Source: a virus
Taxonomy: Duplodnaviria > Caudoviricetes
IMG/VR virus record: IMGVR_UViG_2857192945_000001
Span: 7,598-71,597 of that record
Direction: 5' to 3' (one strand)
DNA length: 64,000 nucleotides
Below the pieces are notes generated by a model. That model did not search any database. It saw only the letters and a program-made list of their open reading frames with translations, and was not told the origin of the DNA. Shown piece after piece: positions 6,911 to 39,896 of the stretch. Numbering within the stretch: position 1 is the first letter of the stretch; the number at the start of each line of letters is the position of its first letter. A program made the translations under genes and the position numbers.

Positions 6911-8458
6911 ATGCTTGATGCGAAAGCATTCATCGCCTTGGAAACCACCCAGTCCGCTGTGATGCGGGCTGGTTGGCGTAAGGAGGCAGCGCGGCACATC
7001 AAGGCACTGGAGCCGATGCTCGCCCAAGGGCAGTGGGATTACGCCCACGAATACGTCGACAAGATCACGATGAACGGAGTTGTGGGAAACCACTTCGCTC
7101 GCCTTGAGGAGCTGGCCGTATCCTCGATCCTGTTCGGCGCCCAGAATGTCACACAGGATCTGAAAAAGACGAGCTTTGTGACAGGCTCCGCTGAAATCCC
7201 GTATGGGATGCAGCAAGCCCTCGAGCAGATGAATTTTATGATCGAGCGAGACGGGGCCGAGCTGCTGCGCAAAGAGCTGCATGCGATTATCCGCCAGGAA
7301 GAGATCGAGTTCCGGGAGGCCATCGCCAAGTCGGGCAAGCAGACGCTTTATGTCCATCGTCCATTGCTCAACGCAGTGCAATTGATTGCATGGGCAAGAT
7401 TGAATGGCTTCAAGACGGCTGTTCCGCCAGAGGAGATGCACGTTACCGTCTGCTACAGCAAAACGCCCATTGATTGGGGCGACCCTGGCTATTCTGCGCC
7501 TGGTGTGCGTGCGTCGGGCGGCAAGCGCACCATAGAGCGGTTCGGCAAGGCGATCGTTCTCACTTTTGAGAGCCAAGACTTGCATGACGACCACGAGCGC
7601 TTTGAAGACTCGGGAGCCTCGTGGGATCACCCGAGCTACAGACCACACGTCACGATCTCTTACGACGAAAACCAAGAAATCGACATTAGCAAGATCGAGC
7701 CGTTCACCTTCGACCTCGAGTTCGGGCCAGAGGTGTTCGCACCTGTGAAGGAGGATTGGTCATCCGGTATCAAGGAAATCCGCCTGAACAAGGCAGCAAA
7801 CCTCAGCCTTGCCGAGAAGCTGAACAACGCCGTGATGGGCAAAGGCGGCAAGATCATCGACATAGGCGCGAACCTCACGACAAGCCGGCTGGTGTCTCTC
7901 GGTTTCCTCGCAGAGGCGATCGACGCCGAGATTGACACGTACCAGGTGAATGAGGTGCTGGACGAGCTGACATGCCCTGTATGCCGTTACATGCATGGCA
8001 AGACGTTCCGCGTGGAGAATGAGTTCTCGCGCACCATGAACGTGCTATCGACCACCGACCCGAAAGAGCTGAAGGGACTTGCTCCGTGGCCACTTCAGAC
8101 AAAGGCCGGCCTCAAGAGTCTGTATGCAATGTCAATCGGTGACATGCAGAATGCAGGCTACGGCAGCCCGCCTTATCACCCCGGATGCCGCGGCTACCTC
8201 TCGCTCACTGGTACGGTGACCGAGGAGTTCCCGATCGGATCGTTGATGATCACGGAAGCAGCTCTCCCAGAGAAGCCGAAAGTGACTCCAAAGCCCGCAA
8301 AACCGGCAACTCCATGGCTCGAGAAACCCACTGGATGGCTCGACGTCATCAACAGGATCAAAGACCAGTCGAAGCGCGAGGCCGCTCTTCAGGCGTGGTC
8401 TGATGAGAACTACGATCTCGTTCGTGAACTAATCGTGGAAGCCGGTCTGTCGGTTTGA
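6911..8458 (+). CDS. Head morphogenesis (MuF/SPP1 gp7-like) protein with inserted 2H phosphoesterase (Acb1-like) domain
   Basis: C-terminal DELTCPVC...PPYHPGCR MuF motifs; central HVTVCYS (aa177) and YRPHVTISY (aa246) paired HxT motifs; follows portal. Confidence 0.8.
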   Translation: MLDAKAFIALETTQSAVMRAGWRKEAARHIKALEPMLAQGQWDYAHEYVDKITMNGVVGNHFARLEELAVSSILFGAQNVTQDLKKTSFVTGSAEIPYGMQQALEQMNFMIERDGAELLRKELHAIIRQEEIEFREAIAKSGKQTLYVHRPLLNAVQLIAWARLNGFKTAVPPEEMHVTVCYSKTPIDWGDPGYSAPGVRASGGKRTIERFGKAIVLTFESQDLHDDHERFEDSGASWDHPSYRPHVTISYDENQEIDISKIEPFTFDLEFGPEVFAPVKEDWSSGIKEIRLNKAANLSLAEKLNNAVMGKGGKIIDIGANLTTSRLVSLGFLAEAIDAEIDTYQVNEVLDELTCPVCRYMHGKTFRVENEFSRTMNVLSTTDPKELKGLAPWPLQTKAGLKSLYAMSIGDMQNAGYGSPPYHPGCRGYLSLTGTVTEEFPIGSLMITEAALPEKPKVTPKPAKPATPWLEKPTGWLDVINRIKDQSKREAALQAWSDENYDLVRELIVEAGLSV

Positions 8459-8487
8459 CGTCGGCACACGTATTAGTCCGCTTTCAT

Positions 8488-8524
8488 TGCAATTAATTGC
8501 AAACAGGAAACCCCTGCGTATTCT
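8488..8524 (+). promoter_or_regulatory. Palindrome overlapping -35 of a putative promoter
   Basis: TTGCAA 8497-8502 (right half of palindrome), 16 nt, TATTCT 8519-8524, upstream of protease gene. Confidence 0.45.
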
Positions 8525-8561
8525 CCGGCTCGTGACACGCACATGAGACGGGGAGACCGGG

Positions 8562-9233
8562 TTGTTCGGAACAAGCTTCAAGGACGGGTGGATGAAGGGC
8601 GCGCAAGCGGCCCCGGTTCATCATGCTTTGAAGGGCGATGCGAGCCAGAAGTCGATCCAGATCAAGAAGCAGGACGAAGAACAGCAGCTCGTTTTTGGTG
8701 AGGTGTTTGCGCCGGGGTTCCCTGACAGCCAGGGGGACTTCATGACGGTCGAGACCATCCAGGAGATGGCTTATGGCTTCATGCGCAAGGGTTTCGTTCA
8801 GAAGATCGATATCCAGCACTCTCAGCAGGAAAGTGGCTGCTACGTCGTCGAAAGCTTCATTGCGCGTGAGGGTGACCCGACTTTCATTCCTGGGAGCTGG
8901 GTGCTGGGCGTCAAGGTCCCCGATCCGGAGATCTGGAGCCTGGTCAAGTCCGGGGAGCTCAACGGCTTCTCTCTTGATGGCTTCGGGGTTCGTGTCGACA
9001 GCGTTATCGAGGTCGACATGCCCGACGTCATCCGGGGATTGACGCTCGAGGCCGAAGGCCACTCCCACGTTTTCTACGTCAAGTACGACCAGGACGGCAA
9101 TTTCCTGGGCGGCCACACCGACGTCGTCGACGGTCACATGCATCGAATTTTGCGGGGAACCGCCACGGAGGACTCGAACGGTCACTCCCACCGGTTCTCG
9201 TTCGTCGAAGGAGTGCTCAATGCCCAAGCTTGA
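8562..9233 (+). CDS. XkdF-like prohead serine protease with C-terminal GHxH repeats
   Basis: KKQDEEQQLVFGEVFAP..DSQGD, IDIQH, GSWVLG, GELNGFSLDG typical of XkdF-like proteases; position between MuF and scaffold. Confidence 0.8.
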   Translation: MFGTSFKDGWMKGAQAAPVHHALKGDASQKSIQIKKQDEEQQLVFGEVFAPGFPDSQGDFMTVETIQEMAYGFMRKGFVQKIDIQHSQQESGCYVVESFIAREGDPTFIPGSWVLGVKVPDPEIWSLVKSGELNGFSLDGFGVRVDSVIEVDMPDVIRGLTLEAEGHSHVFYVKYDQDGNFLGGHTDVVDGHMHRILRGTATEDSNGHSHRFSFVEGVLNAQA

Positions 9234-10689
9234 GATCAAGGCCACCGAACTCGTGGGGACGGACGTGAACTTCGTATCAATGGTGAAGCGGGGAGCGAAC
9301 CGCATCCCGTTCCGTATCACGAAAGGGGATGAACCCATGGACCTGTACAAAATTGGCCGCATGCTTCTGAACAAGGGCGAGCCTGAAGTGCCGGAGGTCG
9401 TTGCGGCTATTGTGCAGCCAGGCGTCGACGCTACCGCTCTGGCTCAGACGTTCAAGGACGCCGGCCTCGACCCGCTGCAGTACACTCCGGTGGAGAAGGA
9501 TGGCGTCGTCGTCATCGCCAAGGAGAACGCGGACGCGGCAAAGGACACCGTCGTCATCAAGGCGAATGAAGGTGTGGCTTTTGTCGTATCGAATATGAAG
9601 AAGGCGTTCATGGACTACGATTACGAGTCCAAGGACTTCCTCACCGTCCTGAAGACCAACGGTTTCTACCCGACGCTTTGCGCCGCACACGATGCCTTTG
9701 CCACGACGGTATCCAATATCCTCTACGAAGCAACCAGCCCGTCTGAGGCTGCCCAGGCAATTTCCAAGGCTGCTGACGATTTCAAGACCTACGTCACGGC
9801 AATGGCTTCGTCACTGCCGGTGCAGGCTTTCAAGATGGAAGTCGCATTGGCCAAGGCTGATGCAGGCAAGAATGGTACTGGCGCCGGCTTCGAAGCTGGT
9901 AAGGGCACGGGAACCACGCCAAGCGCAACGGCTGACGACGCCGCGCACACTGCAATTAACAGCACTGGCGAACCGACCCACGGCAATCCCGACGAACAGC
10001 CTGTCGAAACTCACAAGTCTGACGCCGACAAGGGCAAAGACGAGATGAAGGACAAGGAGAAGGAAGAAGCCAAGAAGGACGAGCTCAAGGGCGTCCCTCA
10101 GCCGACCGGCCATGAGCCTGGTGACGCTGGTGGCTTCGCAGCCGCTCCTGCCGACACGCAGCGCGCCGTTTCCCACGCCTCTGCCGACGACAAGAAGATG
10201 AAGCTGAATGGTGGCACGACCGGCAGCTCCATCCCGGACGGCGACAGCGGGCTCGCACGCTTCGGCGGTGTGAAGAAGGAAGAAGAGCCAGTCCAGAAGA
10301 ACGAAGGCGACGACAAGATTGGTGGTGAGCAGCAGACGCTCCCTGAAGACCAGTCCGGTTCGGGCGCCCAGCAGGCTGCCGAGGTCAAGCCGACCGCAGC
10401 CGATCTCACGAAATCCGACAACGCCGACATTCTGGCGGCAATCGCTGCCCTCCAGAAGAGCGTCTCGGAACAGGTCAACGGCCTCCAGTCCCGCATGGAG
10501 AAGCAGGTCGGTGATCTGAACGCCCGAGTCGATCAGGTAGCCACCATGGCTCGCAAGACCGACGCGGCACTGAACGGCACCGTGTTCGCGGAAGATCCGG
10601 GCGACCGGGTTCGCACTTCCAAGTCGGAAGCTCATTCCGGTGAAATCCCACTTCTCGACACTGCCATCTCTCGCATCAGCGCCGCGTAA
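9220..10689 (+). CDS. Capsid scaffolding/assembly protein
   Basis: Acidic low-complexity middle, C-terminal coiled coil, immediately upstream of capsid gene. Confidence 0.6.
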   Translation: MPKLEIKATELVGTDVNFVSMVKRGANRIPFRITKGDEPMDLYKIGRMLLNKGEPEVPEVVAAIVQPGVDATALAQTFKDAGLDPLQYTPVEKDGVVVIAKENADAAKDTVVIKANEGVAFVVSNMKKAFMDYDYESKDFLTVLKTNGFYPTLCAAHDAFATTVSNILYEATSPSEAAQAISKAADDFKTYVTAMASSLPVQAFKMEVALAKADAGKNGTGAGFEAGKGTGTTPSATADDAAHTAINSTGEPTHGNPDEQPVETHKSDADKGKDEMKDKEKEEAKKDELKGVPQPTGHEPGDAGGFAAAPADTQRAVSHASADDKKMKLNGGTTGSSIPDGDSGLARFGGVKKEEEPVQKNEGDDKIGGEQQTLPEDQSGSGAQQAAEVKPTAADLTKSDNADILAAIAALQKSVSEQVNGLQSRMEKQVGDLNARVDQVATMARKTDAALNGTVFAEDPGDRVRTSKSEAHSGEIPLLDTAISRISAA

Positions 10690-10729: not shown

Positions 10730-11707
10730 ATGACGACCAATTCCAGCCTCCTCCGCAAAGCCGATCTGGTGATCGAGGACCTGCGCGCAAATGGCGGCGA
10801 ACTGCTCCCTGAACAGGGTGCCGCTTTCATTCGCAAGCTGATCAAACAGCCGACCCTGATCCGGCAGTGCCGTGTGGTCGAAATGCTGGCTCCGAAGCGT
10901 AAGATCAACAAGATCGGCTTCGGCAAGCGTATCCTCCGCAAGGCCACCTCCGGCGTAGCTCTGACCCAGGCTCAGCGCTCCAAGCCGACGACCGAACAGC
11001 TCGAGCTGGATACGAAGGAACAGATCGCAGAAGTTCGTCTGCCGTATGACGTTCTCGAAGACAACATCGAGCGCGCCATCTCGGCAAACAACGAAGCGTC
11101 CAACACCGGCCCAGGCGGTCTCCGTCAGACCATCATTGACCTGATCGCTGAGCGTGCTGCTCTCGACTTGGAAGAGCTGGCGCTGCTCGCTGACAAGGCG
11201 TACGTAAACGCTGCTGACCAGGACGATCAGGATTACCTGAGCCAGCTCGACGGTTGGTTGAAGCGTGCCAAGACCACCGGTCATGCGGTCGATGCTGGCA
11301 ATCAGACGATCAACAAGTCTATCTTTAAGAAGGGCTTGAAGTCGCTTCCGTCGCAGTATCAGCGGAACAAGGCTGCTCTGACCCACTTCGTGTCGGTCAA
11401 CAACGCCACGGAATACCGGGACACCCTCGCTGACCGCGGTACTGGTCTCGGTGACAACATGGTGCAGGGCAACAGCCCACTGTTTGCTTTCGGGTCTAGC
11501 GTTGCTGACGTTGCTCTGATGCCGGAAGAAGAAGGGCTGTACACCGATCCGCTGAACCTTATCTTTGGCATCCAGCGTCAGGTTTCGATGGAATTTGACA
11601 AGGATATCACGGCTCGTGTGTACATCATCGTACTGACCACCCGCGTCGACTTCCAGATCGAAGAGCCAGATGCGATCGTGGCCTACGAAAACATCGCTGA
11701 AGAATAA
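10730..11707 (+). CDS. Major capsid protein (HK97 fold)
   Basis: 325 aa, AAAGGA SD, GGELLPEQ, YDVLEDNIE, DGWLK, NLIFG motifs; strongly biased codons; downstream hairpin. Confidence 0.88.
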   Translation: MTTNSSLLRKADLVIEDLRANGGELLPEQGAAFIRKLIKQPTLIRQCRVVEMLAPKRKINKIGFGKRILRKATSGVALTQAQRSKPTTEQLELDTKEQIAEVRLPYDVLEDNIERAISANNEASNTGPGGLRQTIIDLIAERAALDLEELALLADKAYVNAADQDDQDYLSQLDGWLKRAKTTGHAVDAGNQTINKSIFKKGLKSLPSQYQRNKAALTHFVSVNNATEYRDTLADRGTGLGDNMVQGNSPLFAFGSSVADVALMPEEEGLYTDPLNLIFGIQRQVSMEFDKDITARVYIIVLTTRVDFQIEEPDAIVAYENIAEE

Positions 11708-11729
11708 GCGATATGCAATTAATTGCAAA

Positions 11730-11766
11730 AATGGGCAGTCTGATTTAGGCTGCCCATTATTGTTTG
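11730..11766 (+). terminator. Hairpin after capsid gene, possible terminator
   Basis: AATGGGCAGTC / GGCTGCCCATT inverted repeat followed by ATTGTTT, directly after palindrome 11714. Confidence 0.5.
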
Positions 11767-11793
11767 AGAGGCAGAAAAGCTAAGGAGAGCACA

Positions 11794-14156: not shown

Positions 14157-14238
14157 GTGCACCTGACGGTTCCCTGGAAGATTACAATTTTAGCGCTGTG
14201 TGCAATTAATTGCAGATCTTAGATTGATCGAGGCGACC

Positions 14239-16843: not shown

Positions 16844-16940
16844 GCCGGAGTCGCCGGCATACCACGCACACGCACACACGTTGACCCTCGCCTCTGATTT
16901 GCAATTAATTGCACACGTTCACAGAGGCGAGGATTGTGCA

Positions 16941-17500: not shown

Positions 17501-18748
17501 ATGACCGTTGCAGCCCCGCTCCTCACGCGCCGCGCCGTGCTTCAGGCCGCGATCGAGGCGACCTACCGTGAGGAAGCAGCCGTCGGTCTCAACGATGCAC
17601 TCTACGTCGAAGAGCCCGACTACCAGATCAACCTCAACCTGCTCGAACGTAACTTCGCTCGTGACGATTTGTCTCCGCTCCCAAACATTGTTGGGCGGCG
17701 CTTGGCGTCCATGACGTTTACGACCGAGCTCAAGGGCAATGGCGCGCAGAACAGCGGCGTTCTCGCAGACGCTCCGCTCATCTCTCGCCTGTTTCGCGCT
17801 TGCGGCTACTCGCTGACCGCCAACGCTGCTGCAGACAGCACCGTGGTTTACCCAGTCGGTAATCATACCGTTGAGGTGACCTGGGGTGTATCTGTCGCAG
17901 GGGCCACACACACCGACGTGATCAACTTCGTTCTCGAAGTCACGACGGGTGGTGCTTCCGGCGTAGCAGAGATCACCGTTACCTCCGACACCGACGGCCA
18001 GGGCAGCGCTGCTGCAGCCGTTACCTCGGGTACGGCGATCACGCTTGGCACAACCGGCATCGAGGTGACTCCGGAATGGACTGGCAACCTGGCTGCCGGC
18101 ACCCGCTGGACGATCTGGGCATTGCCGAAGGGTCTCCGTCTCGATCCTGTCTCCGACAACTTCGAGAGCTTGACCATGGTGCTGAACATGGACGGCGTTG
18201 AGCACAAGATGCTCGGTTCGCTGGGCACGTTCTCGATCACCGCGGAAGCCGGTAACTACGCTCGTATCGAATGGGAGTTCCAGGGAACCTTCATCGATCC
18301 GATCGACAAGCCGATGCCGATCGCCAACTACGAGAAGTCGCTGCCGTCTCAGGTGGAACTGGCTCGCCTCCGGGTCGACCAGGACTACGTGATCGTCAAC
18401 GCCTTCAACTACACGCAGGCGAACGACATTCAGGTCCGTCCGGACGTCAGCTCCAAAGAAGGCTACGTCGGCACCCGTATCGTCTCTCGTGCTCCGGAAG
18501 GCGGTATCGACCCTGAAGCCGAACTGGTCGCGAACCACGACTTCTGGGGCAAGATGGGTGCGGCTGAGCGCATGACCTTCCAGATGCGTTGCGGCACCGA
18601 GCCTGGCAACACGGTATGGTTCCTGTCGCCAAGCGTGCAGTACACCGGCCTGACCTACCAGGATCGTAACGGTATCCGCACCTACGACGCACAGCTGCGC
18701 TTCTCTCGCGTTCTTGGCAACGACGAGCTCTGCATTGTCCTCGTCTGA
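17501..18748 (+). CDS. Major tail tube protein
   Basis: 415 aa beta-rich protein upstream of chaperone/tape measure; biased codons; followed by terminator. Confidence 0.75.
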   Translation: MTVAAPLLTRRAVLQAAIEATYREEAAVGLNDALYVEEPDYQINLNLLERNFARDDLSPLPNIVGRRLASMTFTTELKGNGAQNSGVLADAPLISRLFRACGYSLTANAAADSTVVYPVGNHTVEVTWGVSVAGATHTDVINFVLEVTTGGASGVAEITVTSDTDGQGSAAAAVTSGTAITLGTTGIEVTPEWTGNLAAGTRWTIWALPKGLRLDPVSDNFESLTMVLNMDGVEHKMLGSLGTFSITAEAGNYARIEWEFQGTFIDPIDKPMPIANYEKSLPSQVELARLRVDQDYVIVNAFNYTQANDIQVRPDVSSKEGYVGTRIVSRAPEGGIDPEAELVANHDFWGKMGAAERMTFQMRCGTEPGNTVWFLSPSVQYTGLTYQDRNGIRTYDAQLRFSRVLGNDELCIVLV

Positions 18749-18780
18749 GGTATGCAATCAATTGCATAATGCGGCGAAGC

Positions 18781-18815
18781 CTGGGGGAGAGTGGAGACGC
18801 TCTCCCCTAGTTTTT
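18781..18815 (+). terminator. Intrinsic terminator after tail tube gene
   Basis: GGGGAGAGT-GGAGAC-GCTCTCCCC stem-loop followed by TAGTTTTT. Confidence 0.65.
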
Positions 18816-19029: not shown

Positions 19030-19124
19030 GATTGCAATTAATTGCACAGCGTCATCGCCTCTCGTAAATTGCCGGCACTGTCCATGTGGGCAGCCACATC
19101 GCCACGCAGCCAGGAGGCAGATAG

Positions 19125-33200: not shown

Positions 33201-33528
33201 TGCACAGACCCGGACGTCGCACTCGACCAACTTCGTCGTACCGTCGGGCTGCCGGTATATTTTGCTGCGCGCATGGGCCTACACCCTTCCCGGAGGTGTC
33301 CGAACCGATTTCGGCGGAGCATACATTCGCCGTAGAAACGGCGGTGAGCTTGTCGTTGAGGGATCTATCACTGCTGACAAGCTCAGCGTGTCAAGCCTTT
33401 CGGCGATCACTGCAACCATCGGCACGTTCCAAAGCGCTCCCAGCGGCCAGAGGACGATGATCCAGGACTCGCTGATCCGTGTGTTCGACGCAAACGGCGT
33501 TGAGCGGGTTCGACTGGGGGTATGGTAA
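27247..33528 (+). CDS. Central tail fibre / host specificity protein (gpJ-like) with FN3 and carbohydrate-binding-like modules
   Basis: LSDGEI, VPSNYDP, TDNPAW, YCDQLVPDG, GCTSRGQARRLG, ends RVRLGVW. Confidence 0.92.
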   Translation: MTQLPKITEFLHGKGGGGKGSAKNDKNTLRSNATVRFIALLSDGEIVGPTRGSRDILLDETRLEADNGQLNFRGVQWDFRSGLPDQAPFDNFKGVEQETTIGVQVTKNNPVTRTLTDPDFTHCRVMIRIPALFKQTDEGMKRTSVQFRIEVRPYNGSYVDAFGVITLSGKNTSGYDKSYTIKLPQNPAPSVSYPWEVRVTRITSDAEDNTKTQDMLYFASLTGIIDEQFIYPDSALLAMAISAEDFEQGLPSLAVEGDGAIIKVPSNYDPVNRTYSGIWNGTFKDAYTDNPAWIYYDIVTNRRVGMGEYIPESSVDKWTLYEIGAYCDQLVPDGFGGMEPRFRMAAYLTDNKECYELLQLIASSFRGMSFWSSGSVTAVQDRPSDPVQLVTRANVVDGEFIYSSSSHTARHTVAHVRYMDPNDLYKSAVEVVRDPQAILRYGERVKEVNAFGCTSRGQARRLGMWILQSELYETQTVTYRAGMDHASLKPGDDILIMDERISGVDNGGRLKRYQSATSVTLDREVTLKSGVSYSLYVMMPDGSVASSPVVGGAGSRSTLALGTALPQQPVSAAVWVLSASNVAPRPFRVLANTEKEDHIFEITALQKHVPKYEFVDRSARFDTPSYREERELTPPKNLTAKEYSYFVNGVPKVGLTVSWEGDAKNLASVFRVEIESPNDQDRFTYPRVSGFSVDVEDVIPGLYTIKVYTLGVSNGRSDPATLLYDAMGWGEVAVPEVRNLQLARPFESPDCEIKWENYFPGGPTNNSMYKMNTVRVYGLVDGERVLRREENVFEPKYTYTIDKNRTDGKPARRLFFEVTATFIVTGIDRTSVPAELTAYNPPIDAPAVKVDSGFGQILISWGATVDTDYVKTKVWAEPLSGYDPTATTPVFEGQAGLYPFQVGNSIPIYVRVAHIDSFSEDDFLASSEVMGQALEVTIDTEPPATPTGLALISTVLEDDPGYVQLIAKWDANTEEDLAGYEVQIKEGDGNYVSYLTSDNAYQWRVRPGVATTVRVAAYDRMNNKSAPCAPVSIVTARDNLPPFDPGHLVASAGLAAIWLKWDTAVVKNLLPWSQDFSPVAWHKGSVVNIAGIGDPIGGVTATRLVELATTGNHGMITYTDASGENTLSVYAKAEERRVLQLALSGEEGLQTAYFDLESGTVIGGTAAAKIIPYEGGFFRCALTADLPAEQSNTVAIMLSDGVSMPADGAPSYIGNGESGLTIWGAQLEIGSRVSPYVVSAGQATSAAVPQDPDFSHIEVWESETDDLSEASLVSETSGTAFSRTGLALETERFYWLRAVDTSGNKSRFTSMVSATTGEIPETELPTIEGILFNPGQGEAKNTLTWSSGSITYNKGTETREIEAGSVDWIGGTIYVFYVRGDTQLSTTQNIVAVYADDGIVLGIYKGGTVFQLVEGRAYMDGGLVLAHTIGANHLVTNQAVITGSAQIAEAIIGDAHVTELSADKLQAGTAIAGSITVDGRTLGTITSSDIVNDDMSIAENWNTNPSVVFADDGNGKQVMRGTGDQGAAISQEKVPFDPSRIYKLTFRIRRVGASDPNRSCYLGIAGFASDKTTPVNALGVIGESSPYHYIVGNFSQSEVPSEWANYSTYIDGSAPGATVTGGTTPSDPSKLSEVVSYISPIILFNYGTGDLPQAMEAQLVRLETMPREAAALVNAGMTKIDPGKILISGGTSLADWRSGGDLTEINGGAISANTIKANSLTIGQRGIEIINLEFEHNKPSVNSVSWTPGTITYIGDDGNSAWRDIVEGSANYTTGTLYLYWQKGTYEIASTTDLAVAQASDCVILATYQGNTRLVAQYGRTVIDGDHIKTGTITAAQADLDSLRAGILVAGSISTNMLQAGAVTASKMFIGNNSNMIPDGNMEDPDAWDNLATSLGAVEIGVVGGWSGFVGSAGSIRITPATDYSGQLTLWTSQLVQVAVGEQYNVGCEVVHHHTKPAYTFFTVDTYDVNKNRTGGQIFGGRSDSAQTRTSHSTNFVVPSGCRYILLRAWAYTLPGGVRTDFGGAYIRRRNGGELVVEGSITADKLSVSSLSAITATIGTFQSAPSGQRTMIQDSLIRVFDANGVERVRLGVW

Positions 33529-33821
33529 TGGCCGCGGGTCTAATCATTTGGGACGAATACGGTCGTGTCGTGATGGACACGACCACCAGAATGGGGCGCA
33601 TCCTCGGCTTCGGCACGATTGGAACAGCCGATGGCAGCATCACGCCAGGGGGCTGGGATACGGGCACCCTGTTTTTCTCGCTTATACCACGGGCTCAGGG
33701 CTTCGAGACCGGCTACGACTACCCGACGATCACACGCAATACGACGTCATTGTTCTGGGCTTGGGGAAGCACCCCCGCTCACAGGCGGGCAAACGTCAAC
33801 TTTGTGTGGGGGGTGTACTGA
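33528..33821 (+). CDS. Small tail-tip associated protein
   Basis: MAAGLIIWDEYG...WGVY pattern typical of genes following gpJ; TAATG coupling. Confidence 0.7.
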   Translation: MAAGLIIWDEYGRVVMDTTTRMGRILGFGTIGTADGSITPGGWDTGTLFFSLIPRAQGFETGYDYPTITRNTTSLFWAWGSTPAHRRANVNFVWGVY

Positions 33822-34483
33822 TGACAGCCGGTCTCTTTATCAGAAACGATTATGGAACGGTCCAGATCGACGAGAATTACACCAATCTCGTCCTTACCGC
33901 CTCGGGGACCGTCATCTCTCAGGCTGCCGATCCATATCTGAACTCGAGCTTCACGATCACTGTGACCGGAACCAACCCGCTCATCGCGATATATCACGGC
34001 GCGTACTGGATGATCCATACCTGCACGCAGTCGGGAAATGTCTTCACTTATGTCGGGTACACAGAAGCCGGCGCCGGCACCGCCGTTCAGTATTACGTGT
34101 TCGACCGCGCCCCGCACGTCGCTAACGCCTCACGTTCGGGCCTTCTGATTTGGAATGGCTCGGGGCAGGTTGTGTTCAACAGCGACATGCGGCCTCTCCG
34201 CATCAGCGGGGTGCTCGAGAACGCAGGTAACGGGACCTTCGGTTTCGCAGCGGGTCGGGCGTACGCGGTGATTATGGCCGCCCCGTTCTATTCCGTAAGC
34301 GTTTCTAGAGTCAGTCCGACGCTTTGGATATCTACATTCCATTCCAGCCGAGTAGCGACGTCGGGCGCGAATATCTTGTGTGCGTCAAGACAGTTGCGGA
34401 CGCCCTTGTCATCTGGTGCGGGGTTCCAAGTGTGGCCACCCAATTTCTACTCCCTGATCGTCGTCGACGTCACCAACTATTGA
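33821..34483 (+). CDS. Tail-tip associated protein
   Basis: MTAGLFIRNDYGTVQIDENY, YYVFD, GLLIWNGSGQVVFNS, ends VDVTNY; TGATG coupling. Confidence 0.7.
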   Translation: MTAGLFIRNDYGTVQIDENYTNLVLTASGTVISQAADPYLNSSFTITVTGTNPLIAIYHGAYWMIHTCTQSGNVFTYVGYTEAGAGTAVQYYVFDRAPHVANASRSGLLIWNGSGQVVFNSDMRPLRISGVLENAGNGTFGFAAGRAYAVIMAAPFYSVSVSRVSPTLWISTFHSSRVATSGANILCASRQLRTPLSSGAGFQVWPPNFYSLIVVDVTNY

Positions 34484-34523
34484 GGAATGCGGCTCCATGG
34501 TGCTGTCGTGGGTCCGTTTTCGT

Positions 34524-34577
34524 TGCAATCAATTGCACTCGATGAGCTGTTTATGTAGTGCTGTGCAATCAATTGCA
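34524..34577. promoter_or_regulatory. Tandem pair of palindromes upstream of lysis cassette
   Basis: TGCAATCAATTGCA at 34524 and 34564, 40 bp apart. Confidence 0.7.
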
Positions 34578-34594
34578 CAAACGGGACAGCCGCC

Positions 34595-35743
34595 ATGGTC
34601 ACGAAAGCGGAACTCAACAGGTTCCTTCCGAATGCCAAGGCCAGTCTGATCGATGCCATCGTCGATAACTGGGCTGAAGCCGAAAAGCAGGGGATATCGA
34701 CACCCCGCCGTATCCGCCATTTCATGTGCAATATTGCCGTGGAGACAGGCGGCCTGCGCACCATTGTCGAAAGCCTGACATACACCAGCGCAGAGCGCAT
34801 CCAGGCCGTATGGCCATCGCGGTTCAAGACCGTAAAATCTGCTCAGCCGTACGTTCGCCAGGCCAAGAAACTGGCGATCAAGGTCTATGGTGGTCGCATG
34901 GGCAACGCCTCGGCGCCCAGCGAAGATGGGTGGATCTATCGAGGCGGCGGTATGCTGCAGACCACGGGGCGCGAGGGCTATCGCAAGATGGGCTTCGAGA
35001 AAAGCCCCGGCACGCTTCAGACGAATGTAAAGGTCGCATTTCTCACCGCCGTCCGGGAGTGGGGCAAACGTGGCTGCAATGCGCTGGCCGACAAGGATGA
35101 TACGACCGGAGTTCGCAAGGCGATCAACGGCGGCACGAATGGTCTGGCAGAAGTCAAGAAATACTTGGCGACGGCCAAGAAGGTCTGGCCAGACAACGCT
35201 AAAGCCGCGCTACCGAAGAACTCCCCGATCACCAACCCTGTTATCGTCAAAGACGTACAGGTGATGCTCAAACAGCTGGGCTACACGGAGGTCGGAGGGT
35301 CAGATGGTATTATCGGCACCATGACTCGCGGGGCAATCCTTGCCTTCAGGGCGGAGAATGGTCTGCCGTTGAGTACGTCGATCGACGATGAGTTCATGGA
35401 GGCGCTGAAAACGGCTCAGCCGCGGCAGATCGCTGTCGGAAGGGTAGCTGCTCCGGTGAAGGACGTGGTAGCCAAGGTGCCGGAAGTGAAGGCTAACTTC
35501 ATCTCCAAGATCATCTCTGCCGTGACCGCGTTCTTCTCGACTATCGTTGCGGCGGTGATGGGCATCTTCGATCAGTTTGATGCAGCCAAGGCGTATATAG
35601 ACCCGCTCAAGGAATACGCGGCAGACGTACCTGGCTGGGTCTGGCTCCTGATTATCGCGATCATTGCCGCCGTGATTTTCGGCATTAGCCGGCATGGTGA
35701 AAAGAAAGGTGTCGAGGCGTTCCAGAACGGTGAGCGCCGATGA
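34595..35743 (+). CDS. Endolysin: GH19 catalytic domain, peptidoglycan-binding domain, C-terminal hydrophobic helices
   Basis: HFMCNIAVETGG, YGGRMGN, YRGGGMLQTTGR, INGGTNG; VQVMLKQLGY...DGIIGTMTRGAILAF. Confidence 0.9.
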   Translation: MVTKAELNRFLPNAKASLIDAIVDNWAEAEKQGISTPRRIRHFMCNIAVETGGLRTIVESLTYTSAERIQAVWPSRFKTVKSAQPYVRQAKKLAIKVYGGRMGNASAPSEDGWIYRGGGMLQTTGREGYRKMGFEKSPGTLQTNVKVAFLTAVREWGKRGCNALADKDDTTGVRKAINGGTNGLAEVKKYLATAKKVWPDNAKAALPKNSPITNPVIVKDVQVMLKQLGYTEVGGSDGIIGTMTRGAILAFRAENGLPLSTSIDDEFMEALKTAQPRQIAVGRVAAPVKDVVAKVPEVKANFISKIISAVTAFFSTIVAAVMGIFDQFDAAKAYIDPLKEYAADVPGWVWLLIIAIIAAVIFGISRHGEKKGVEAFQNGERR

Positions 35744-35985
35744 GCCCGAAATCAATCATCTATGGACTGTTAGGTCTCGCTATTATCGGCGCGCTGAGCT
35801 GGACAGTTCATGAGCTCCGTGAAGGCGCGCGGCAGGAGGCCATCAGTGATGTTGAGAAAGCAAATAGGGCTAATGACGGGAAGGCCGCAAAAGGGCAGGC
35901 GGCTGTTGATGAGTGTTACCGGCGCGGCGGCACTTGGGATCGTACTCGCGGGCTGTGCTCCCAAAGCAATGCTGCCGGTAAATAA
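35740..35985 (+). CDS. Inner-membrane spanin (Rz-like)
   Basis: N-terminal TM helix, helical periplasmic part, C-terminal Cys residues; follows endolysin. Confidence 0.65.
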   Translation: MSPKSIIYGLLGLAIIGALSWTVHELREGARQEAISDVEKANRANDGKAAKGQAAVDECYRRGGTWDRTRGLCSQSNAAGK

Positions 35986-36127
35986 GCCTTGCGGGGTCAT
36001 TGACGACTCACTGGGCGATGTTCAGGCGACGACGAAAGAGGGCAACAAGAGGATCGACGCTCATTTCGAGCGTGGGGTCCGCGCTGGGTGCTGGGATCGT
36101 TCTTCGGCCTCCAGCGTTAAACATTAG
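35909..36127 (+). CDS. Outer-membrane lipoprotein spanin (Rz1-like)
   Basis: Signal peptide ending in lipobox LAGC; overlaps 3' end of Rz-like gene in another frame. Confidence 0.7.
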   Translation: MSVTGAAALGIVLAGCAPKAMLPVNKPCGVIDDSLGDVQATTKEGNKRIDAHFERGVRAGCWDRSSASSVKH

Positions 36128-36139
36128 AAGGGTACGTCA

Positions 36140-36445
36140 GTGAATATTTTTGGGCATGACATATCCTTTTGGCTCGCCGTGTTCGGCGCAGCGCTCTTTA
36201 AGCTGGCCACGTCTCCCCGGATGACGTGGCTCCGTAGCATCATCTCGGTGTTCGCCGCCTTGTTTGCTGCTTGGGTCTTCACCAAGCCTGTGCTGGCCCT
36301 TCTGGAACTCGACGGGAATACCTATACAATCCCGGTCGCGGTACTCGCCGGATTGACCGGAGAAGGGTTGATGAAATGGTCGATCTTCGCCGCAAACAAT
36401 CCCAAGGAAGCGATCGAGTTTCTCAAAGTGTGGAAAATGAGATGA
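36140..36445 (+). CDS. Putative holin
   Basis: 101 aa with about three hydrophobic segments, in lysis cassette. Confidence 0.65.
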   Translation: MNIFGHDISFWLAVFGAALFKLATSPRMTWLRSIISVFAALFAAWVFTKPVLALLELDGNTYTIPVAVLAGLTGEGLMKWSIFAANNPKEAIEFLKVWKMR

Positions 36446-36528
36446 GCAATGACCGTGCAGATCACTGGCCTCTCGTACTCCTCATAGGATGGGCCGTGCT
36501 GCTCGCTATTGCCAGCTGCTCTCAGTAG
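36442..36528 (+). CDS. 28-aa hydrophobic peptide
   Basis: ATGA overlap with holin; MSNDRADHWPLVLLIGWAVLLAIASCSQ; palindrome follows stop. Confidence 0.4.
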   Translation: MSNDRADHWPLVLLIGWAVLLAIASCSQ

Positions 36529-36620
36529 GAATTTGTGCAATCAATTGCATTTTTGCTTGCTAATGCACGCATCTCAGTCATAGTCAGATGGAATAAGGCC
36601 AAGGAGGGCCGCCATCGACC

Positions 36621-37823
36621 ATGCTCAAACTAGCCATAGAAGCCCAGATCCCGCTGATCGCTGTTCACACCCGAGACCTCGTCAATTTCGTCGAGGTTCT
36701 GAAGACGCTCACGGACAAGCCTCCCCTCCCATACGACATTAATTCCACCAAGCCACAACCGGACACGCTATTTTACTTCGTTCACCCTGCAGGCGCCCAG
36801 CTGCCGCTGGTGAAGCTGTACGAGAAGATGGTCAATGCCGAGAGCACGCTCATTCTGGTGAACCCGGAGCGTGTGGTGGAACCGATGTTCAATGCCGGCG
36901 AAGTGCCGGTTCCGCGTCAGCTGCTTCTCGATTTCATGACCGCGGTCGTGGAGGACAAGGAAAAAGCCAAGGTGCTCCTGCAGGGGTTGGGTGGCTGCAC
37001 GATCAAGGAAGCAGCCGAGCTCGCTCGCCTCACCATGGCTCGGGATCACAGCCTCACCGTTCAGGGCATCATGGAGACCCGTAAGTCGATATTCCAGGCG
37101 TCGAATGGCCTGACCCAGATCGACGTCAAGCAGGACTTCTACGATCCACCGGAGGAGCTTGCTACGTGGATCGAGAAGGAGCGTGAGTTCTTCCTGCACG
37201 GGACCGATCCCCGACTTATCCCGAGGGGCCTGCTGATGGACGGCCCTCCCGGAACCGGCAAGACGGCAGCTGCCAAGTACGTGGCTCTGCAGTGGGGCGT
37301 CCCGCTCTATCGCGTGGACATTGCCGGCACGAAGAACAAGTACGTGGGCGAGAGCGAGCAGAACATGCTGACCAACCTTGCACGCCTCGATCATGAGGAG
37401 CCGTGCATCGCCCTGATCGACGAGGTCGAGAAGATCTTCAACACGTCGAACAATGACACCTCGGGAACCACGTCCACGATGCTCAGCCAGCTCCTCTGGT
37501 GGCTTGCGGAGCATAAGAGCAGGGTTCTGGTCATGATGACGACGAACGCAGCCAGCAAGCTTCCCAAGGAGCTTTATCGCGAGGGCCGCATCGACAAGAC
37601 ACTGGACTTCAATGGGCTGGATAAGGCCAAGGCCGAGGAGTTCATCATCAAGGTGATCGACGGCTTCAAGGGCTTCATTTACGACCAGCCTACAGCGATC
37701 AAGGATATCATGAAGCGCGTGACCCCGATCGAAGGAGCTTCCCCGCCACTTTATTCGCAGGCGGCCCTGACCGCCGAGGTCTACAATTTTGTGAAGCAGG
37801 CCAAGCCATCTCTCACCACTTGA
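36621..37823 (+). CDS. AAA+ ATPase (Ycf46-like architecture)
   Basis: Walker A GPPGTGKT, KYVGESE, Walker B LIDEVEK, MTTN, REGRID arginine finger. Confidence 0.88.
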   Translation: MLKLAIEAQIPLIAVHTRDLVNFVEVLKTLTDKPPLPYDINSTKPQPDTLFYFVHPAGAQLPLVKLYEKMVNAESTLILVNPERVVEPMFNAGEVPVPRQLLLDFMTAVVEDKEKAKVLLQGLGGCTIKEAAELARLTMARDHSLTVQGIMETRKSIFQASNGLTQIDVKQDFYDPPEELATWIEKEREFFLHGTDPRLIPRGLLMDGPPGTGKTAAAKYVALQWGVPLYRVDIAGTKNKYVGESEQNMLTNLARLDHEEPCIALIDEVEKIFNTSNNDTSGTTSTMLSQLLWWLAEHKSRVLVMMTTNAASKLPKELYREGRIDKTLDFNGLDKAKAEEFIIKVIDGFKGFIYDQPTAIKDIMKRVTPIEGASPPLYSQAALTAEVYNFVKQAKPSLTT

Positions 37824-37883
37824 TCCTGTTCGACTACCAAGCACCATAGTTGTGCAATCAATTGCAATGAAGGAAACAGACTG

Positions 37884-38561
37884 ATGAACGCTGAAAAGCA
37901 GCAGCCTCTGATGATGGGCGGCACCGAAAGCAAGAACTCGTATCTCGTGATCGCCCGCCGCGGTGGTTTCGTCATCGGCGTGAAGCCGGAGGAGATCCTC
38001 GACGGTATCGCTATGAACTGTCCTGGGACGACATGGTTCGGCGCCCGCATCCGATCCGCGCTGGCCGGCGACATGTTCAAGGATGATCCGTCCAAGAAGG
38101 TGGTCGTGTCGATCGCTGATCTGGCGCTCACGACGGCGACAGCTTGGCCGGGGGTCGTCTGGGAAAAGACTGATGAGGTTCGCTCGTCCACGACCATCGG
38201 TGTTCTTCTCAAGGGTAAGCCAAACGGCACCGACGAGGAAGTGCAGCAGTTCCTTGCCGAGGTCGACCAGGGCGTTCTCGCATCGAAGATGGCCGACTAC
38301 GTGGCCGAGCTCGCAGGCGAGGAACACCTGATCATTCCGGTCAGCGAGATCAAGGAATGGTTCGACGCCTACTACAAGAAAATCGTCGCAATGATCATGG
38401 ACACCATAGCCAAGAAACAGGCCATTAAGGAGACGATGGAAGCCAACATCGGCGTGTTCGGCATGCAGGCGCAGATCCTCAAGAAAGCGCTGGAAAAGGC
38501 GCAGGAGAAGTCGCCGGCCAACAATGCCGAAGACAAGGACCCATCTACCGGGGAGGCGTGA
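37884..38561 (+). CDS. Hypothetical protein
   Basis: AAGGA SD, 225 aa ORF, phage-like codons. Confidence 0.7.
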   Translation: MNAEKQQPLMMGGTESKNSYLVIARRGGFVIGVKPEEILDGIAMNCPGTTWFGARIRSALAGDMFKDDPSKKVVVSIADLALTTATAWPGVVWEKTDEVRSSTTIGVLLKGKPNGTDEEVQQFLAEVDQGVLASKMADYVAELAGEEHLIIPVSEIKEWFDAYYKKIVAMIMDTIAKKQAIKETMEANIGVFGMQAQILKKALEKAQEKSPANNAEDKDPSTGEA

Positions 38562-38887
38562 TGCCGAATTGTATTGCTCGAGCCCATAAAGCTACAGGCA
38601 ATCTGACGGCTGCCGTGGTGTTCCTCGTCATTGGAGAGGAGTGCCGCAGGCAGTTGAAGAACGGGGTCCTCGGGGTCCCGTTCCCGTACGTCAAGATCAC
38701 GGAAGAAACTGGCTGCACGCGCAAGCAGGTGCGGTTCGCTCTCGAGGTGATCCGAGACAAGAAACTCCTGGAGTTCAGTCAGAAGCTGGTGGGCAACAAG
38801 AATGTGAACGTGTTCCGCCTCACAGATAAAGCCCTCAAAGTGATGGGAGGCGACGGCCTTGACGAATTTATTGGCGAGGGCCTTTGA
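38561..38887 (+). CDS. Winged helix-turn-helix protein
   Basis: PYVKITEETGCTRKQVRFALEVIRDKKLL HTH plus wing ending FRLTDKA. Confidence 0.7.
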   Translation: MPNCIARAHKATGNLTAAVVFLVIGEECRRQLKNGVLGVPFPYVKITEETGCTRKQVRFALEVIRDKKLLEFSQKLVGNKNVNVFRLTDKALKVMGGDGLDEFIGEGL

Positions 38888-39896
38888 AGGCACGCAGGAC
38901 CCGTATGACGCCATTCTTCTAGTGCGTATAGCGTTCCGGTACAATCAGGCCCGGAAGGCTGGAAAGAAGTCGACCGCGCAGTCCTATTCGGACCTCGTAA
39001 GCGAGACTGGCTTCAAGCCGAGGCGCATCAAAAAGAGCTTATCCAACTTGCGGCAGCTGGGCTTGATCCAGTCGAAGCAGGGTTTGTTCGGCAATAAGAA
39101 TGTGAATCATATCTGGCTCACGGAGAAAGGCAGTAGACTCGTAGAAGGCCACTCAAGCAGTACACAAAAGTGTCTGCCCGAGGGGTCTCAAATAAGTCCA
39201 CTCTATATACAGGGAGAAACAACAGGGAGTGACAACATGGAGATTAGCGTGCAGTTGCACGCAGGGTCAAAAGCGGGGTCTTTCGCCAGTCCAGGAAAGG
39301 GTGCAAGCATGATCAGACTTCCCCCGAAAGGGAAAAGAACAAAGATGAACGCGGGCGCGAGCGAGGCGAAGCCGGCCAAGCCTACGTCCGTCCTCGACGT
39401 CGTCGCCCACGTGAAGGCGAACAAGATGTTGCATCACCCCGACTCTGCGACGGGGTTGTCGTTTCTCTGGAAGCAACTGGTGTTCGAGCATCACGGCTCT
39501 GTGTCTACCGTAACGACGAAGAAGGAATTGGGACAGTTCAAAAACTTCATCAACAAGTGCCCACCCGGAACAGCAATAAAGGCCATGACTGTTGCTTTGG
39601 TTGATTGGGTGAAATTTGCGAAGACTGTCGAAGAACAGGCGGGGATAAAGAACAGTCCTTCAATGCCCAACCTCGATTTCCTATTGAAACATGCTGGCGT
39701 TGCTGTAAACCTGATAGCGAAATCCCCCAAATCGCCGTCAAAGCAGGAGGCTGGCACCGGCATGATTTCGTCCAAGGATGTGCAATTAATTTCACAAACC
39801 AAACCGAAGGCGGATAAGCCTGCGGCTGAGGTCGATGACGCCATGCCGTCGAGCCTCGATGATCTTATCAAGGCCATCAACGGGGGCGGCTTATGA
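38859..39896 (+). CDS. Putative replication initiator with N-terminal winged HTH
   Basis: SYSDLVSETGFKPRRIKKSLSNLRQLGLI; low-complexity linker; precedes loader-like and helicase genes. Confidence 0.6.
   Translation: MTNLLARAFEGTQDPYDAILLVRIAFRYNQARKAGKKSTAQSYSDLVSETGFKPRRIKKSLSNLRQLGLIQSKQGLFGNKNVNHIWLTEKGSRLVEGHSSSTQKCLPEGSQISPLYIQGETTGSDNMEISVQLHAGSKAGSFASPGKGASMIRLPPKGKRTKMNAGASEAKPAKPTSVLDVVAHVKANKMLHHPDSATGLSFLWKQLVFEHHGSVSTVTTKKELGQFKNFINKCPPGTAIKAMTVALVDWVKFAKTVEEQAGIKNSPSMPNLDFLLKHAGVAVNLIAKSPKSPSKQEAGTGMISSKDVQLISQTKPKADKPAAEVDDAMPSSLDDLIKAINGGGL

Follow-up and report, generated by a model that had tools for sequence, protein, structure and literature searches.

The stretch of DNA analysed here (the window, 64,000 nt) comprises bases 7598-71597 of the IMG/VR record IMGVR_UViG_2857192945_000001 of a Caudoviricetes phage, which is 71.6 kb long, rated 72% complete and referred to as G000. 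The element in question is a 14-bp palindrome, TGCAAT-NN-ATTGCA, that is scattered over the window and is also written into its genes. All long open reading frames (ORFs) of the window lie on the + strand. Genes were called with a crude caller of our own, on whose calls the tests of spacing and position given below rest, and were assigned by PHROG and Pfam matches across the window. Among named phages, the most similar capsid proteins are those of Rhodobacter phage RcZahn (76%) and the Rhizobium phages RHph_TM16 (65%; TM16 in the following) and RHph_Y1_11 (62%), followed by those of the Stenotrophomonas phages DLP3, DLP5 and Summit (54%); the genomes of all these phages measure ~96-102 kb. The siphophage to which the window belongs has a genome of ~100 kb and is a member of the RcZahn/RHph_TM16/DLP5 lineage, with all genes in one direction. 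A megablast search with window positions 20000-40000 against the phage collection gave no match; further relatives are referred to by G and L numbers.

The palindrome occurs in 29 exact copies in the window, compared to 0.00 in 100 shuffles, and in 40 copies if up to two mismatches are allowed, compared to 1.96 expected. Its symmetry is perfect and its centre is always TA, CA or TG. Counted by strand, CA and TG centres stand at 8:2 in the window, at 3:7 in G003 and at 4:4 in G002, revealing no consistent bias.

Inside genes of the window, two exact copies (7377 and 28319) and four copies with one mismatch (25990, 30134, 39781 and 53340) were found. The exact copy at 7377-7390 (TGCAATTGATTGCA) occupies codons 156-160 of the gene 6911-8458 (+ strand; GTG CAA TTG ATT GCA, VQLIA), at the start of an Acb1 domain. 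The encoded 515-aa protein consists of an N-terminal part, the Acb1 domain (aa 144-285) and a Mu-F-like part, with domain matches to PF23474 (E = 1.8e-37) and PF04233 (E = 2.5e-4, below the cut-off). Two copies lie in the gene of the gpJ-like central tail fibre (27247-33528, + strand; 2093 aa; PHROG 31, E = 4.8e-264), namely the exact copy at 28319-28332 (TGCAATTAATTGCA; codons 358-362, TTG CAA TTA ATT GCA, LQLIA) and the one-mismatch copy at 30134-30147 (TGCAGTTAATTGCA; codons 963-967, GTG CAG TTA ATT GCA, VQLIA), the TGCAGT half-site of which is a natural variant elsewhere in the family. The one-mismatch copy at 39781-39794 (TGCAATTAATTTCA; GTG CAA TTA ATT TCA, VQLIS) is located 115 nt before the stop of the gene 38859-39896 (+ strand), which is flanked by an AAA ATPase gene and a DnaB-like helicase gene and encodes a protein of 345 aa whose N-terminus weakly matches HTH_36 (PF13730, E = 0.0034, below the cut-off). 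These four copies, including the two inside gpJ, had been placed correctly and in their proper frames in an earlier analysis of the letters alone (the sequence-only reading).

A one-mismatch copy absent from that reading was found at 53340-53353 (TGCATTTGATTGCA) in codons 5-9 of the gene 53327-53974, where it is read as VHLIA in the same frame as xQLIA (register 2). Another, at 25990-26003 (TGCAATCAATAGCA), lies in the tail gene 25901-26650 in register 3 (AINS), with its mismatch at the would-be Cys codon. Three register-3 copies with two mismatches are candidate sites: 9951-9964 (TGCAATTAACAGCA; gene 9220-10689, AINS), 49873-49886 (TGCAATTAATATCA; gene 49709-50272) and 24080-24093 (TGCAAGCAATTTCA; tape-measure gene 20073-24800). 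A fourth at 24949-24962 (TGAAATTAATTTCA; gene 24800-25156, register 3) is a symmetric double variant in which the otherwise invariant TGCA ends are altered, and it probably does not serve this phage as a site. As a class, in-gene copies with two mismatches are weakly above the null (5 vs 1.70, P = 0.024). The weaker copies proposed in the sequence-only reading (9951, 24949, 25990 and 49873) are thus correctly positioned, with reservations as to 24949 and the two-mismatch class.

The codons that make up the copies were found to be rare in the window, where CAA accounts for 15% of Gln codons and TTA for 1.7% of Leu codons (27 codons), and the shares of TTG, ATT, GCA and TCA are 12%, 21%, 19% and 8%, respectively; the GC content at third codon positions (GC3) of the window genes is 0.71. 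In genes of at least 150 aa, 3 of the 22 TTA codons are located inside sites. The rare-codon use proposed earlier is thereby borne out, except that copy 30134 has CAG instead of CAA. Synonymous shuffling of the window genes of at least 150 aa (300 shuffles) yielded on average 0.00 exact and 0.11 one-mismatch copies, compared to 2 and 3 observed, and none of the shuffles reached the observed total. With the same length limit, the comparison of in-gene copies with the synonymous-shuffle null in six genomes gave 5 vs 0.11 for G000, 12 vs 0.33 for G001, 11 vs 0.63 for G002, 4 vs 0.86 for G003, 7 vs 0.28 for RcZahn and 2 vs 0.23 for G004. Examples of in-gene copies in RcZahn are 28136 in the tape-measure gene and 61802 in gp71. 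In the predicted window proteome, three instances of the peptide QLIA were found, all at motif sites, compared to ~0.35 expected arithmetically from composition; no QLIA is written in common codons, so that a common-codon control peptide does not exist. The DNA motif appears to create the QLIA peptide rather than to make use of a pre-existing one. We conclude that the in-gene copies are maintained by selection on the DNA, as had been proposed.

The shared register of the four best copies, also pointed out previously, was confirmed, and it is largely forced by the genetic code and by which peptides are tolerable, so that it does not constitute an independent signal. Register 1 with a TTAA or TTGA centre is read as TGC AAT followed by TAA or TGA, a stop. 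Register 3 (GCA ATT AAT TGC) requires Cys, and the window copies in this register (AINS, AINS and AINI) are mismatched exactly at the Cys codon. Among 41 in-gene copies from six genomes, registers 2, 3 and 1 are used 25, 13 and 3 times, respectively.

Conservation of the in-gene sites was assessed in orthologues. Site 39781 is situated in a poorly conserved C-terminal linker, in which orthologues retain an island at this place: G001 and G002 have GTG CAA TTA ATT GCA (VQLIA), G003 has TTG CAA TTG ATT GCA (LQLIA), and G004 has GTG CAA CTA GTT GCA (VQLVA), which matches the motif variant of G004 itself. The site is lost in RcZahn and TM16. Orthologues of motif-carrying phages do not freely use other codons here; four such phages keep those of the motif. 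A second conserved in-gene site is present 135-147 nt ahead of the stop of a ParB-like gene of the lineage, reading LQLIA in G001 and G009, LQQIA in TM16 (matching its own variant) and LQSIA in G008, and is lost in RcZahn. Site 7377, located at the first helix of the Acb1 domain, is unchanged in L009 (92% aa identity); the L036 locus (64% GC) reads GAG CAG TTA ATT GCA here, with two mismatches and TTA ATT GCA retained, and the site is absent from the more distant L023, L024 and L025. The idea that this site derives from an intergenic gap that remained after a gene fusion was rejected, as the peptide is homologous within the Acb1 domains of site-less relatives. In the gpJ gene, the residues at 28319 are LLQKVAS in G003 (CTG CAA AAA GTG GCT) and TLSSMAS in TM16, and closer gpJ relatives were found neither in IMG/VR nor in metagenome contigs. 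Amino acid changes seem to have been accepted to make the gpJ site, because the window reads ELLQLIASSF where G003 reads DLLQKVASAF; judged from these sequences, the positions of gpJ sites appear to turn over. The expected conservation in orthologues was therefore seen for 39781 and, in L009, for 7377, and not for the two gpJ sites.

Arrays of TGCA-N6-TGCA were detected in all relatives examined. The family pattern TGCAA-N4-TTGCA, including variants, occurs 47 times in G001 (92 kb, complete), 23 times in G002, 21 times in G003 (44% GC) and 9 times in RcZahn. TM16 carries 16 copies of its own variant, (G)TGCAA-CATA-TTGCA(C); in G004, TGCAACTAGTTGCA accounts for 14 of the 15 family-pattern copies; G008 contains 12 copies of TGCAGTCAACTGCA; and G005 contains 69 TGCA-N6-TGCA copies with relaxed inner positions. 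The motif of the complete G009 (L066-L071) is asymmetric, with TGTGCAATTAA followed by a degenerate right half, and occurs in 13 copies (10:3 by strand). Fourteen exact TGCAAT-NN-ATTGCA copies are present in the first 50 kb of DLP5. Comparing half-site spacings, TGCA-N6-TGCA was counted 15-69 times per genome in six of seven genomes checked vs 0-7 times at other spacings (2-11); in G009, with its degenerate right half, it was counted six times. The motif is retained in phage genomes and contigs of 44-66% GC as well as in cultured phages of Stenotrophomonas, Rhodobacter and Rhizobium.

In a 4.5-Mb Hyphomicrobium metagenome-assembled genome (MAG), 29 of 29 family copies are located on a phage-bearing contig, and in a 4.8-Mb Burkholderiaceae MAG, 14 of 15 are located on a 96-kb contig of phage size. 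A host regulon motif was rejected on the basis of this confinement to phage contigs in two MAGs, which implies that the reader of the site is a phage product rather than a host regulator. On the Hyphomicrobium contig C4 (309 kb; L059/G006), 23 copies form one block at 113-170 kb and 6 copies another at 229-264 kb, which could reflect an integrated prophage, the presence of two phages or a chimeric assembly. The more distant phage L087 has four TGAAATCA(A/G)TTTCA sites (1045, 9181, 12775 and 15460; 0.33 expected), a symmetric C-to-A/G-to-T variant of the motif (TGAAATCAATTTCA) of the same type as window copy 24949. In G001 (L043), five palindromes are found in ~450 bp of non-coding DNA at 81690-82160 (record coordinates), where AACATGTTA-like palindromes also recur and GAGAGTCTCGGC is present in three repeats; the region is a possible origin or master control region. 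No published description of the array was found, and the exact motif strings are absent from the literature searched; no word starting with 'palindrom' was found in the RcZahn and DLP3 papers, and none starting with 'promoter' in the DLP3 paper.

Intergenic copies usually start 0-10 nt past the upstream stop codon, with the next start codon 11 to ~130 nt away, and several copies are only 11-18 nt ahead of it. In the structural half of the window, a one-mismatch copy at 2549-2562 (TGCAATTAACTGCA) lies in an intergenic gap right behind a stop codon. Exact copies are found at 4976-4989, between the DNA polymerase (2702-4969, + strand) and portal (5031-6902, + strand) genes and 6 nt past the stop; at 8488-8501, upstream of the prohead protease gene (8592-9233, + strand), with the right half usable as a -35 element (TTGCAA-N16-TATTCT); at 11714-11727, 6 nt past the stop of the major capsid gene (10730-11707, + strand), with a terminator-like hairpin directly 3' (region 11714-11775); and in an intergenic gap at 14201-14214. 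The exact copy at 18753-18766 is situated 4 nt past the stop of the tail gene 17501-18748 and again has a terminator-like hairpin on its 3' side (region 18753-18810); this order of palindrome and hairpin recurs in G001 at 34693 and 38707. The right half of the exact copy at 19033-19046 is usable as a -35 element (TTGCAC-N17-TAAATT), and the exact copy at 20043-20056 is 17 nt 5' of the start codon of the tape-measure gene (20073-24800, + strand). The exact copy at 16900-16913 is bracketed by an 11-bp inverted repeat (16884-16894 and 16922-16932; arms CCTCGCCTCTG and CAGAGGCGAGG), the right arm of which also provides the ribosome-binding site for a likely GTG start at 16941. The ORF that seems to contain this copy most likely starts there, which makes the copy intergenic.

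Further downstream, two exact copies 40 bp apart (TGCAATCAATTGCA, 34524-34577) precede the lysin gene. Exact intergenic copies follow at 36536-36549, at 37853-37866 (stop 3 nt upstream, next ATG 18 nt on), at 41755-41768 (right half usable as -35, TTGCAT-N16-TAAGAT), at 43939-43952 and 44831-44844, at 46657-46670 (next ATG 12 nt on), at 50276-50289, at 54045-54058 (abutting a stop codon), at 55163-55176 and 57753-57766, at 59383-59396 (next ATG 11 nt on) and at 59681-59694. The exact copy at 52884-52897 is followed after 6 nt by CTTGCT, and that at 62367-62380 abuts a stop codon.

At a minority of copies, the palindrome was found in a fixed arrangement with a sigma70-type promoter, palindrome-N6/7-(C)TTGCA-N16/17-(-10), which applies to 4 of 38 copies in G000 and 9 of 62 in G001, with 0.06 expected in each genome. 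The four in the window, all on the + strand, have the -10 elements TAAGAT, TACTGT, TAAAGT and TAAGTT. At 959-1007, a one-mismatch palindrome is followed by 6 nt, a half-site ATTGCA that doubles as -35 (TTGCAC), 16 nt and TAAGAT, resembling an early-type promoter with a putative operator. At 51678-51726, a terminator-like hairpin precedes an exact palindrome, 6 nt, ATTGCAT (-35), 16 nt and TACTGT. Exact palindromes with the same distances are found at 54798-54846 (CTTGCAT as -35, TAAAGT) and 59035-59083 (ATTGCAT as -35, TAAGTT). The -35 element of the promoter-linked copies is itself a half-site. In G001, at least nine early promoters consist of the palindrome, ~7 nt, GCTTGCA, ~17 nt and GCTAGAG, each 69-79 nt before a small gene; -10 boxes of the GCTAGAG type are typical of Alphaproteobacteria. 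At early promoters, copies are dense, occurring every 300-500 bp.

No recognisable promoter was seen downstream of 34 of the 38 copies in G000 and 53 of the 62 in G001, and copies are present at 23 of the 58 gene boundaries of G000. No position downstream of the palindrome is conserved among the 29 exact copies, on which ground one fixed promoter behind every palindrome was rejected. Within genes, 16 of 49 copies lie no more than 170 nt from the stop and hence just upstream of the next gene, compared to ~18% expected (P = 0.009). Interiors of long genes hold 13 copies in 108 kb vs 9 copies in 160 kb for shorter genes (P = 0.057), and in G001 six of the eight genes of at least 600 aa hold a copy, at relative positions of 0.45-0.91. 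There is moderate support for two in-gene classes, namely 3'-end copies that replace a missing intergenic gap, some of them conserved, and mid-gene copies that fill gaps and turn over. The tests of position, like those of spacing, were picked after inspection of the data.

To evaluate spacing, intergenic copies were held fixed and the real in-gene copies were compared with random placement in coding DNA. Gaps were more even than random in G000 (P = 0.006-0.013), G001 (P = 0.002), G003 (P = 0.029) and RcZahn (P = 0.049), and Fisher's combined P over seven genomes was 2e-4. The four sites of the sequence-only reading alone gave P = 0.07. Gaps outside the early region average 2.1-2.3 kb in G000, G001 and G002, with coefficients of variation (CV) of 0.57, 0.51 and 0.96, respectively, and 3.5 kb in G003 (CV 0.51). 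Mid-gene copies are placed so as to fill gaps (P = 0.0001 in G001 and P = 0.046 in G000), and a gap of 5.9 kb remains in the window. The regular spacing presumed in the sequence-only reading is accordingly seen in three or four of seven genomes and not in G002, G004 and TM16. Its preference for a spacing-dependent role over promoter control holds in part, as the spacing signal is partial and a link to promoters is evident both from the copies near stops and from those at promoters.

The remaining gene content of the window, all from PHROG and Pfam matches, includes lambda-like M/L/K/I/J tail genes (+ strand), with J at 27247-33528, and a lysin gene, after which genes for an AAA ATPase, a DnaB-like helicase, RNase H, a primase, a superfamily 2 (SF2) helicase, a UvsX-like recombinase and two resolvases follow. 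From ~50 kb of the window onwards, small genes without relatives are numerous. In the gene 6911-8458, the Acb1 domain is inserted between the N-terminal part and the Mu-F-like minor head part; the insert is present in L009, L023, L024, L025 and L036 and missing from L010, L011, L013, L014, L019 and L021, and possibly represents the fusion of an anti-defence enzyme with a head protein. The interval separating the terminase genes from the DNA polymerase gene (record bases 1-7597 and window 208-942) encodes a pyruvate phosphate dikinase-like and two tyrosine-phosphatase-like proteins, as does its counterpart in RcZahn and TM16. Relatives additionally encode sugar-nucleotide enzymes and ThyX-like and dCTP-deaminase-like genes, which may serve DNA or surface modification. 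The IMG/VR label of G000 is 'provirus', which may stem from trimming; the record starts just past the place where relatives hold sugar-modifying genes and the ParB-like gene, and those could have passed for host DNA. By its position, the gene of a 108-aa protein (46327-46653) corresponds to a DLP5 gene with the annotation 'transcriptional regulator'; the protein lacks Pfam matches and does not resemble a helix-turn-helix (HTH) protein by inspection.

As for a protein that may bind the palindrome, an Xre/Cro-type HTH_3 protein of 82-105 aa is encoded once in each record of 100% completeness (G001, G004, G005 and G009) and is also present in RcZahn, TM16 and G008, the last with two HTH_3 genes. 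Repressors of the Xre/Cro/CI type (434, P22, lambda) have palindromic operators of 14-17 bp. The lineage resembles these systems in its small conserved HTH_3 protein with a C-terminal dimer-like tail and in half-site cores 10 bp apart; unlike the classical 3-6 operators at one or two control regions, 30-70 sites are here distributed genome-wide, structural genes included. An Xre helix of the type xR(S/A)T(L/I)RR accompanies the TGCA-N6-TGCA arrays. The helix of G005, where inner positions are relaxed, is SRSFLND, and that of L087, with TGAAATCAATTTCA-type sites, is SRKSIAWF, a comparison confounded by relatedness.

A ParB-like protein of ~300 aa is encoded beside the terminase genes of the lineage, its gene lying just outside the present record. 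A profile of seven orthologues matched ParB (E = 5.3e-14), Noc (2.8e-11, profile positions 11-172) and KorB (6.3e-7), and the protein retains a GxxR-type motif (GHHR). The Noc alignment extends into the DNA-binding region, and the structure model, with a mean predicted local distance difference test score (pLDDT) of 58.6, is confident for the N-terminal domain alone and unreliable past residue ~115. A third conserved candidate is the HTH_36-type protein, with the conserved site 39781 inside its own gene. In RcZahn, the Xre-type, ParB-like and HTH_36-type proteins are gp135, gp1 and gp51, respectively.

Concerning lifestyle, G001 (L039) encodes a GcrA-like protein (76-408), a large serine recombinase (3166-4752) and a single Xre-type HTH (7585-7833), on the same strand as all genes. 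No integrase or repressor gene was found in the 72%-complete record of the present phage. DLP5 and DLP3 are reported to form lysogens (PMC5834331, PMC7326821), in the case of DLP5 as a phagemid (PMC5834331).

Taking these data together, we give somewhat better than even chances to the palindrome being the operator of one phage-encoded dimeric HTH regulator, with the small Xre-type protein as prime candidate, and being stoperator-like elsewhere; the binder, its repressing and roadblock action and the reason for the spacing are what we infer from the comparison of genomes. The dimer would be placed ~7 bp ahead of the -35 element of early promoters, and as this element with its TTGCA mimics a third half-site, binding would shut the promoter. 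The majority of copies, off promoters and behind stops at roughly every second or third gene boundary (~2 kb), would act as stoperator-like roadblocks or as anchoring sites by which the whole genome may be silenced. In abutting genes and in those of several kb, the site is written into the reading frame, at the cost of rare codons and of the peptide xQLIA in register 2 or AINC in register 3. A silencing regulator is plausible because of the serine recombinase of G001, the lysogens of DLP5 and DLP3 and the relative on a Hyphomicrobium MAG contig.

Several observations weigh against this reading. Both gpJ sites (28319 and 30134) are missing from the two J orthologues found (G003, with 50% identity, and TM16); evenness of spacing was not seen in TM16 (P = 0.20), G004 (P = 0.61) and G002 (P = 0.77); and the tape-measure genes of G000 and G003 contain no copy with up to one mismatch. 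The HTH_3 gene is absent from the incomplete records G000, G002 and G003 and lies outside the 72% covered by G000. Relatedness confounds the association of Xre helix and motif, and no copy is present in the 15-18 kb of L091-L093, whose helix is HRATLRRW. The ParB-like and HTH_36 proteins are two other conserved candidate binders. An operator centred near -50 alone does not occlude RNA polymerase, and repression would have to involve the supposed third half-site. A repressor that blocks late genes fits a temperate phage, yet the integrase and Xre genes of G001 share one strand with all genes, and no promoter map for lysogeny was found.

Among described systems, the Cluster A mycobacteriophages (L5 gp71 type) are reported to have one repressor and 20-30 genome-wide sites, few of which are operators and most of which lie off promoters and block elongation, with motifs and repressors co-varying between phages (PMC6550527). 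The present lineage is similar in its 35-62 sites per genome (up to one mismatch), of which a minority are at promoters and most in short intergenic gaps, and in its lineage-specific variants. It differs in that Cluster A stoperators are described as 13-bp, asymmetric and oriented with transcription (PMC6550527), whereas the motif here is a perfect palindrome without orientation; the candidate binder is unrelated to gp71 by any test run, and repression and roadblock action are putative here. The repeats of Cluster O (Corndog) are the nearest described phenomenon: more than 30 invariant 17-bp inverted repeats, about one third in coding regions (11 of 34 clearly) and most off predicted promoters, for which dimeric DNA-binding proteins were proposed as binders and the function was given as unknown (PMC4351075). 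Both share the feature of more than 30 inverted repeats per genome that hardly vary in sequence and occur in coding as well as intergenic DNA. The Cluster O repeat has a 7-3-7 structure (TGTTCGG-N3-CCGAACA) as opposed to 6-2-6 here, and host phylum and phage lineage differ. Codon cost, in-frame covariation, even spacing and a fixed promoter geometry, all seen here, are not mentioned in the accessible part of the Cluster O report (PMC4351075).

A different mechanism, which we consider unlikely, is that the palindromes are loading sites of a ParB/Noc/KorB-like nucleoside triphosphate (NTP)-switch protein that slides or spreads over a limited distance, so that covering the genome for silencing, plasmid-prophage partition or membrane tethering would need a site about every 2 kb, long genes included. 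KorB OB sites (RK2), ParB parS sites and Noc NBS sites are short dispersed palindromes of 13-16 bp, a size that resembles the present element; some lie far from promoters or in genes, and their binder, a ParB-fold protein, exerts its effect at a distance. By analogy, these arrays would be the nearest mechanistic model for a spacing constraint. The lineage likewise encodes a ParB/Noc/KorB-like protein, as judged from the profile matches and the GHHR motif, although its connection with the palindrome, its HTH and NTP binding are putative; the ParB-like gene itself has the conserved 3'-end site in four of five close orthologues. KorB is reported to act as a sliding clamp and to silence promoters kilobases away from its binding site (PMC11790492, PMC13768133), and the ~2-kb even spacing, the mid-gene copies in six of eight long G001 genes and the phagemid state reported for DLP5 would suit a protein of limited range. 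On the other hand, no HTH domain is demonstrable in the ParB-like protein, and phage ParB-fold proteins are often enzymes or fusions with other roles (PMC12704722). In G005, with its 69 sites, ParB_N was matched only weakly and below the cut-off, by a 535-aa ORF; Pfam scans of G000 and of parts of G001 revealed no parA gene; and the fixed place beside a -35 element that mimics a half-site suits a classical operator better.

Promoter or operator control only, where each copy regulates its downstream gene and mid-gene copies and even spacing are by-products, is likewise regarded as unlikely. This explanation would account for the excess of in-gene copies near stops, for the 3'-end location of both conserved in-gene sites (HTH_36 gene and ParB-like gene), for the fixed geometry shared by promoter-linked copies, for the lack of conservation of the gpJ sites and for the failure of the spacing test in three genomes. 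It is at odds with the large share of copies without a recognisable downstream promoter, with those 11-18 nt before a start codon, which leave no room for a promoter, and with the absence of anything conserved downstream of the 29 exact copies. Mid-gene copies, moreover, are exact, bear a rare-codon cost and fill gaps, and long-gene interiors tend to be richer in copies than shorter genes.

A role outside transcription, with the palindromes as anchors for compaction, protection, packaging, ejection, nuclease defence or recombination-dependent replication, appears improbable. The even gaps outside the early region (CV 0.51-0.57 in G000 and G001, 0.51 in G003) and the presence of copies at fewer than half of the G000 gene boundaries agree with such a role, and the authors of the Cluster O report reasoned that most dyad repeats, being off promoters, must serve another process (PMC4351075). 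However, the sequence gives no pointer to a particular process of this kind, the dense clustering at early promoters with fixed geometry is not predicted by a structural role, and spacing is uneven in G002, G004 and TM16. Chance, a protein-level motif or an RNA hairpin was rejected as very improbable: although xQLIA-like peptides occur in helical, partly conserved contexts (Acb1 domain, ParB-like protein) and the element is transcribed with a possible 5-bp stem, the shuffle nulls (0.00 exact 14-mers expected), the QLIA counts (none in common codons) and the orthologue covariation, in which the middle residue is L, Q, S or V according to each phage's DNA variant, contradict it, as do peptide hosts that are unrelated proteins and once an unconserved linker, a centre that is self-complementary or a pyrimidine-purine step, and early-promoter copies that lie upstream of, and outside, that transcript.

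A more far-reaching reading is offered tentatively, as a possibility that we consider doubtful. The genomes would carry a lattice of ~2-kb-spaced sites for a phage protein of limited range, be it a roadblock repressor that has to cap all transcripts or an NTP-switch clamp sliding away from each site, and the need for coverage would dictate amino acids of essential structural genes (xQLIA, AINC), conserved from Stenotrophomonas phages to those of Rhodobacter and Rhizobium. If this lattice were real, the spacing of DNA sites would be a selectable trait that shapes phage proteins. Dispersed site arrays are known in few phage groups, and this lineage adds a measurable cost in codons and amino acids, in-frame covariation with the motif of each phage, a half-site doubling as -35 element and a partial signal of even spacing. 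The motif marks phage DNA against host DNA, as evident from 29 of 29 and 14 of 15 copies in the two MAGs, and is thus useful for annotation; cultured members of the lineage (RcZahn, RHph_TM16 and DLP5) make the array experimentally tractable.

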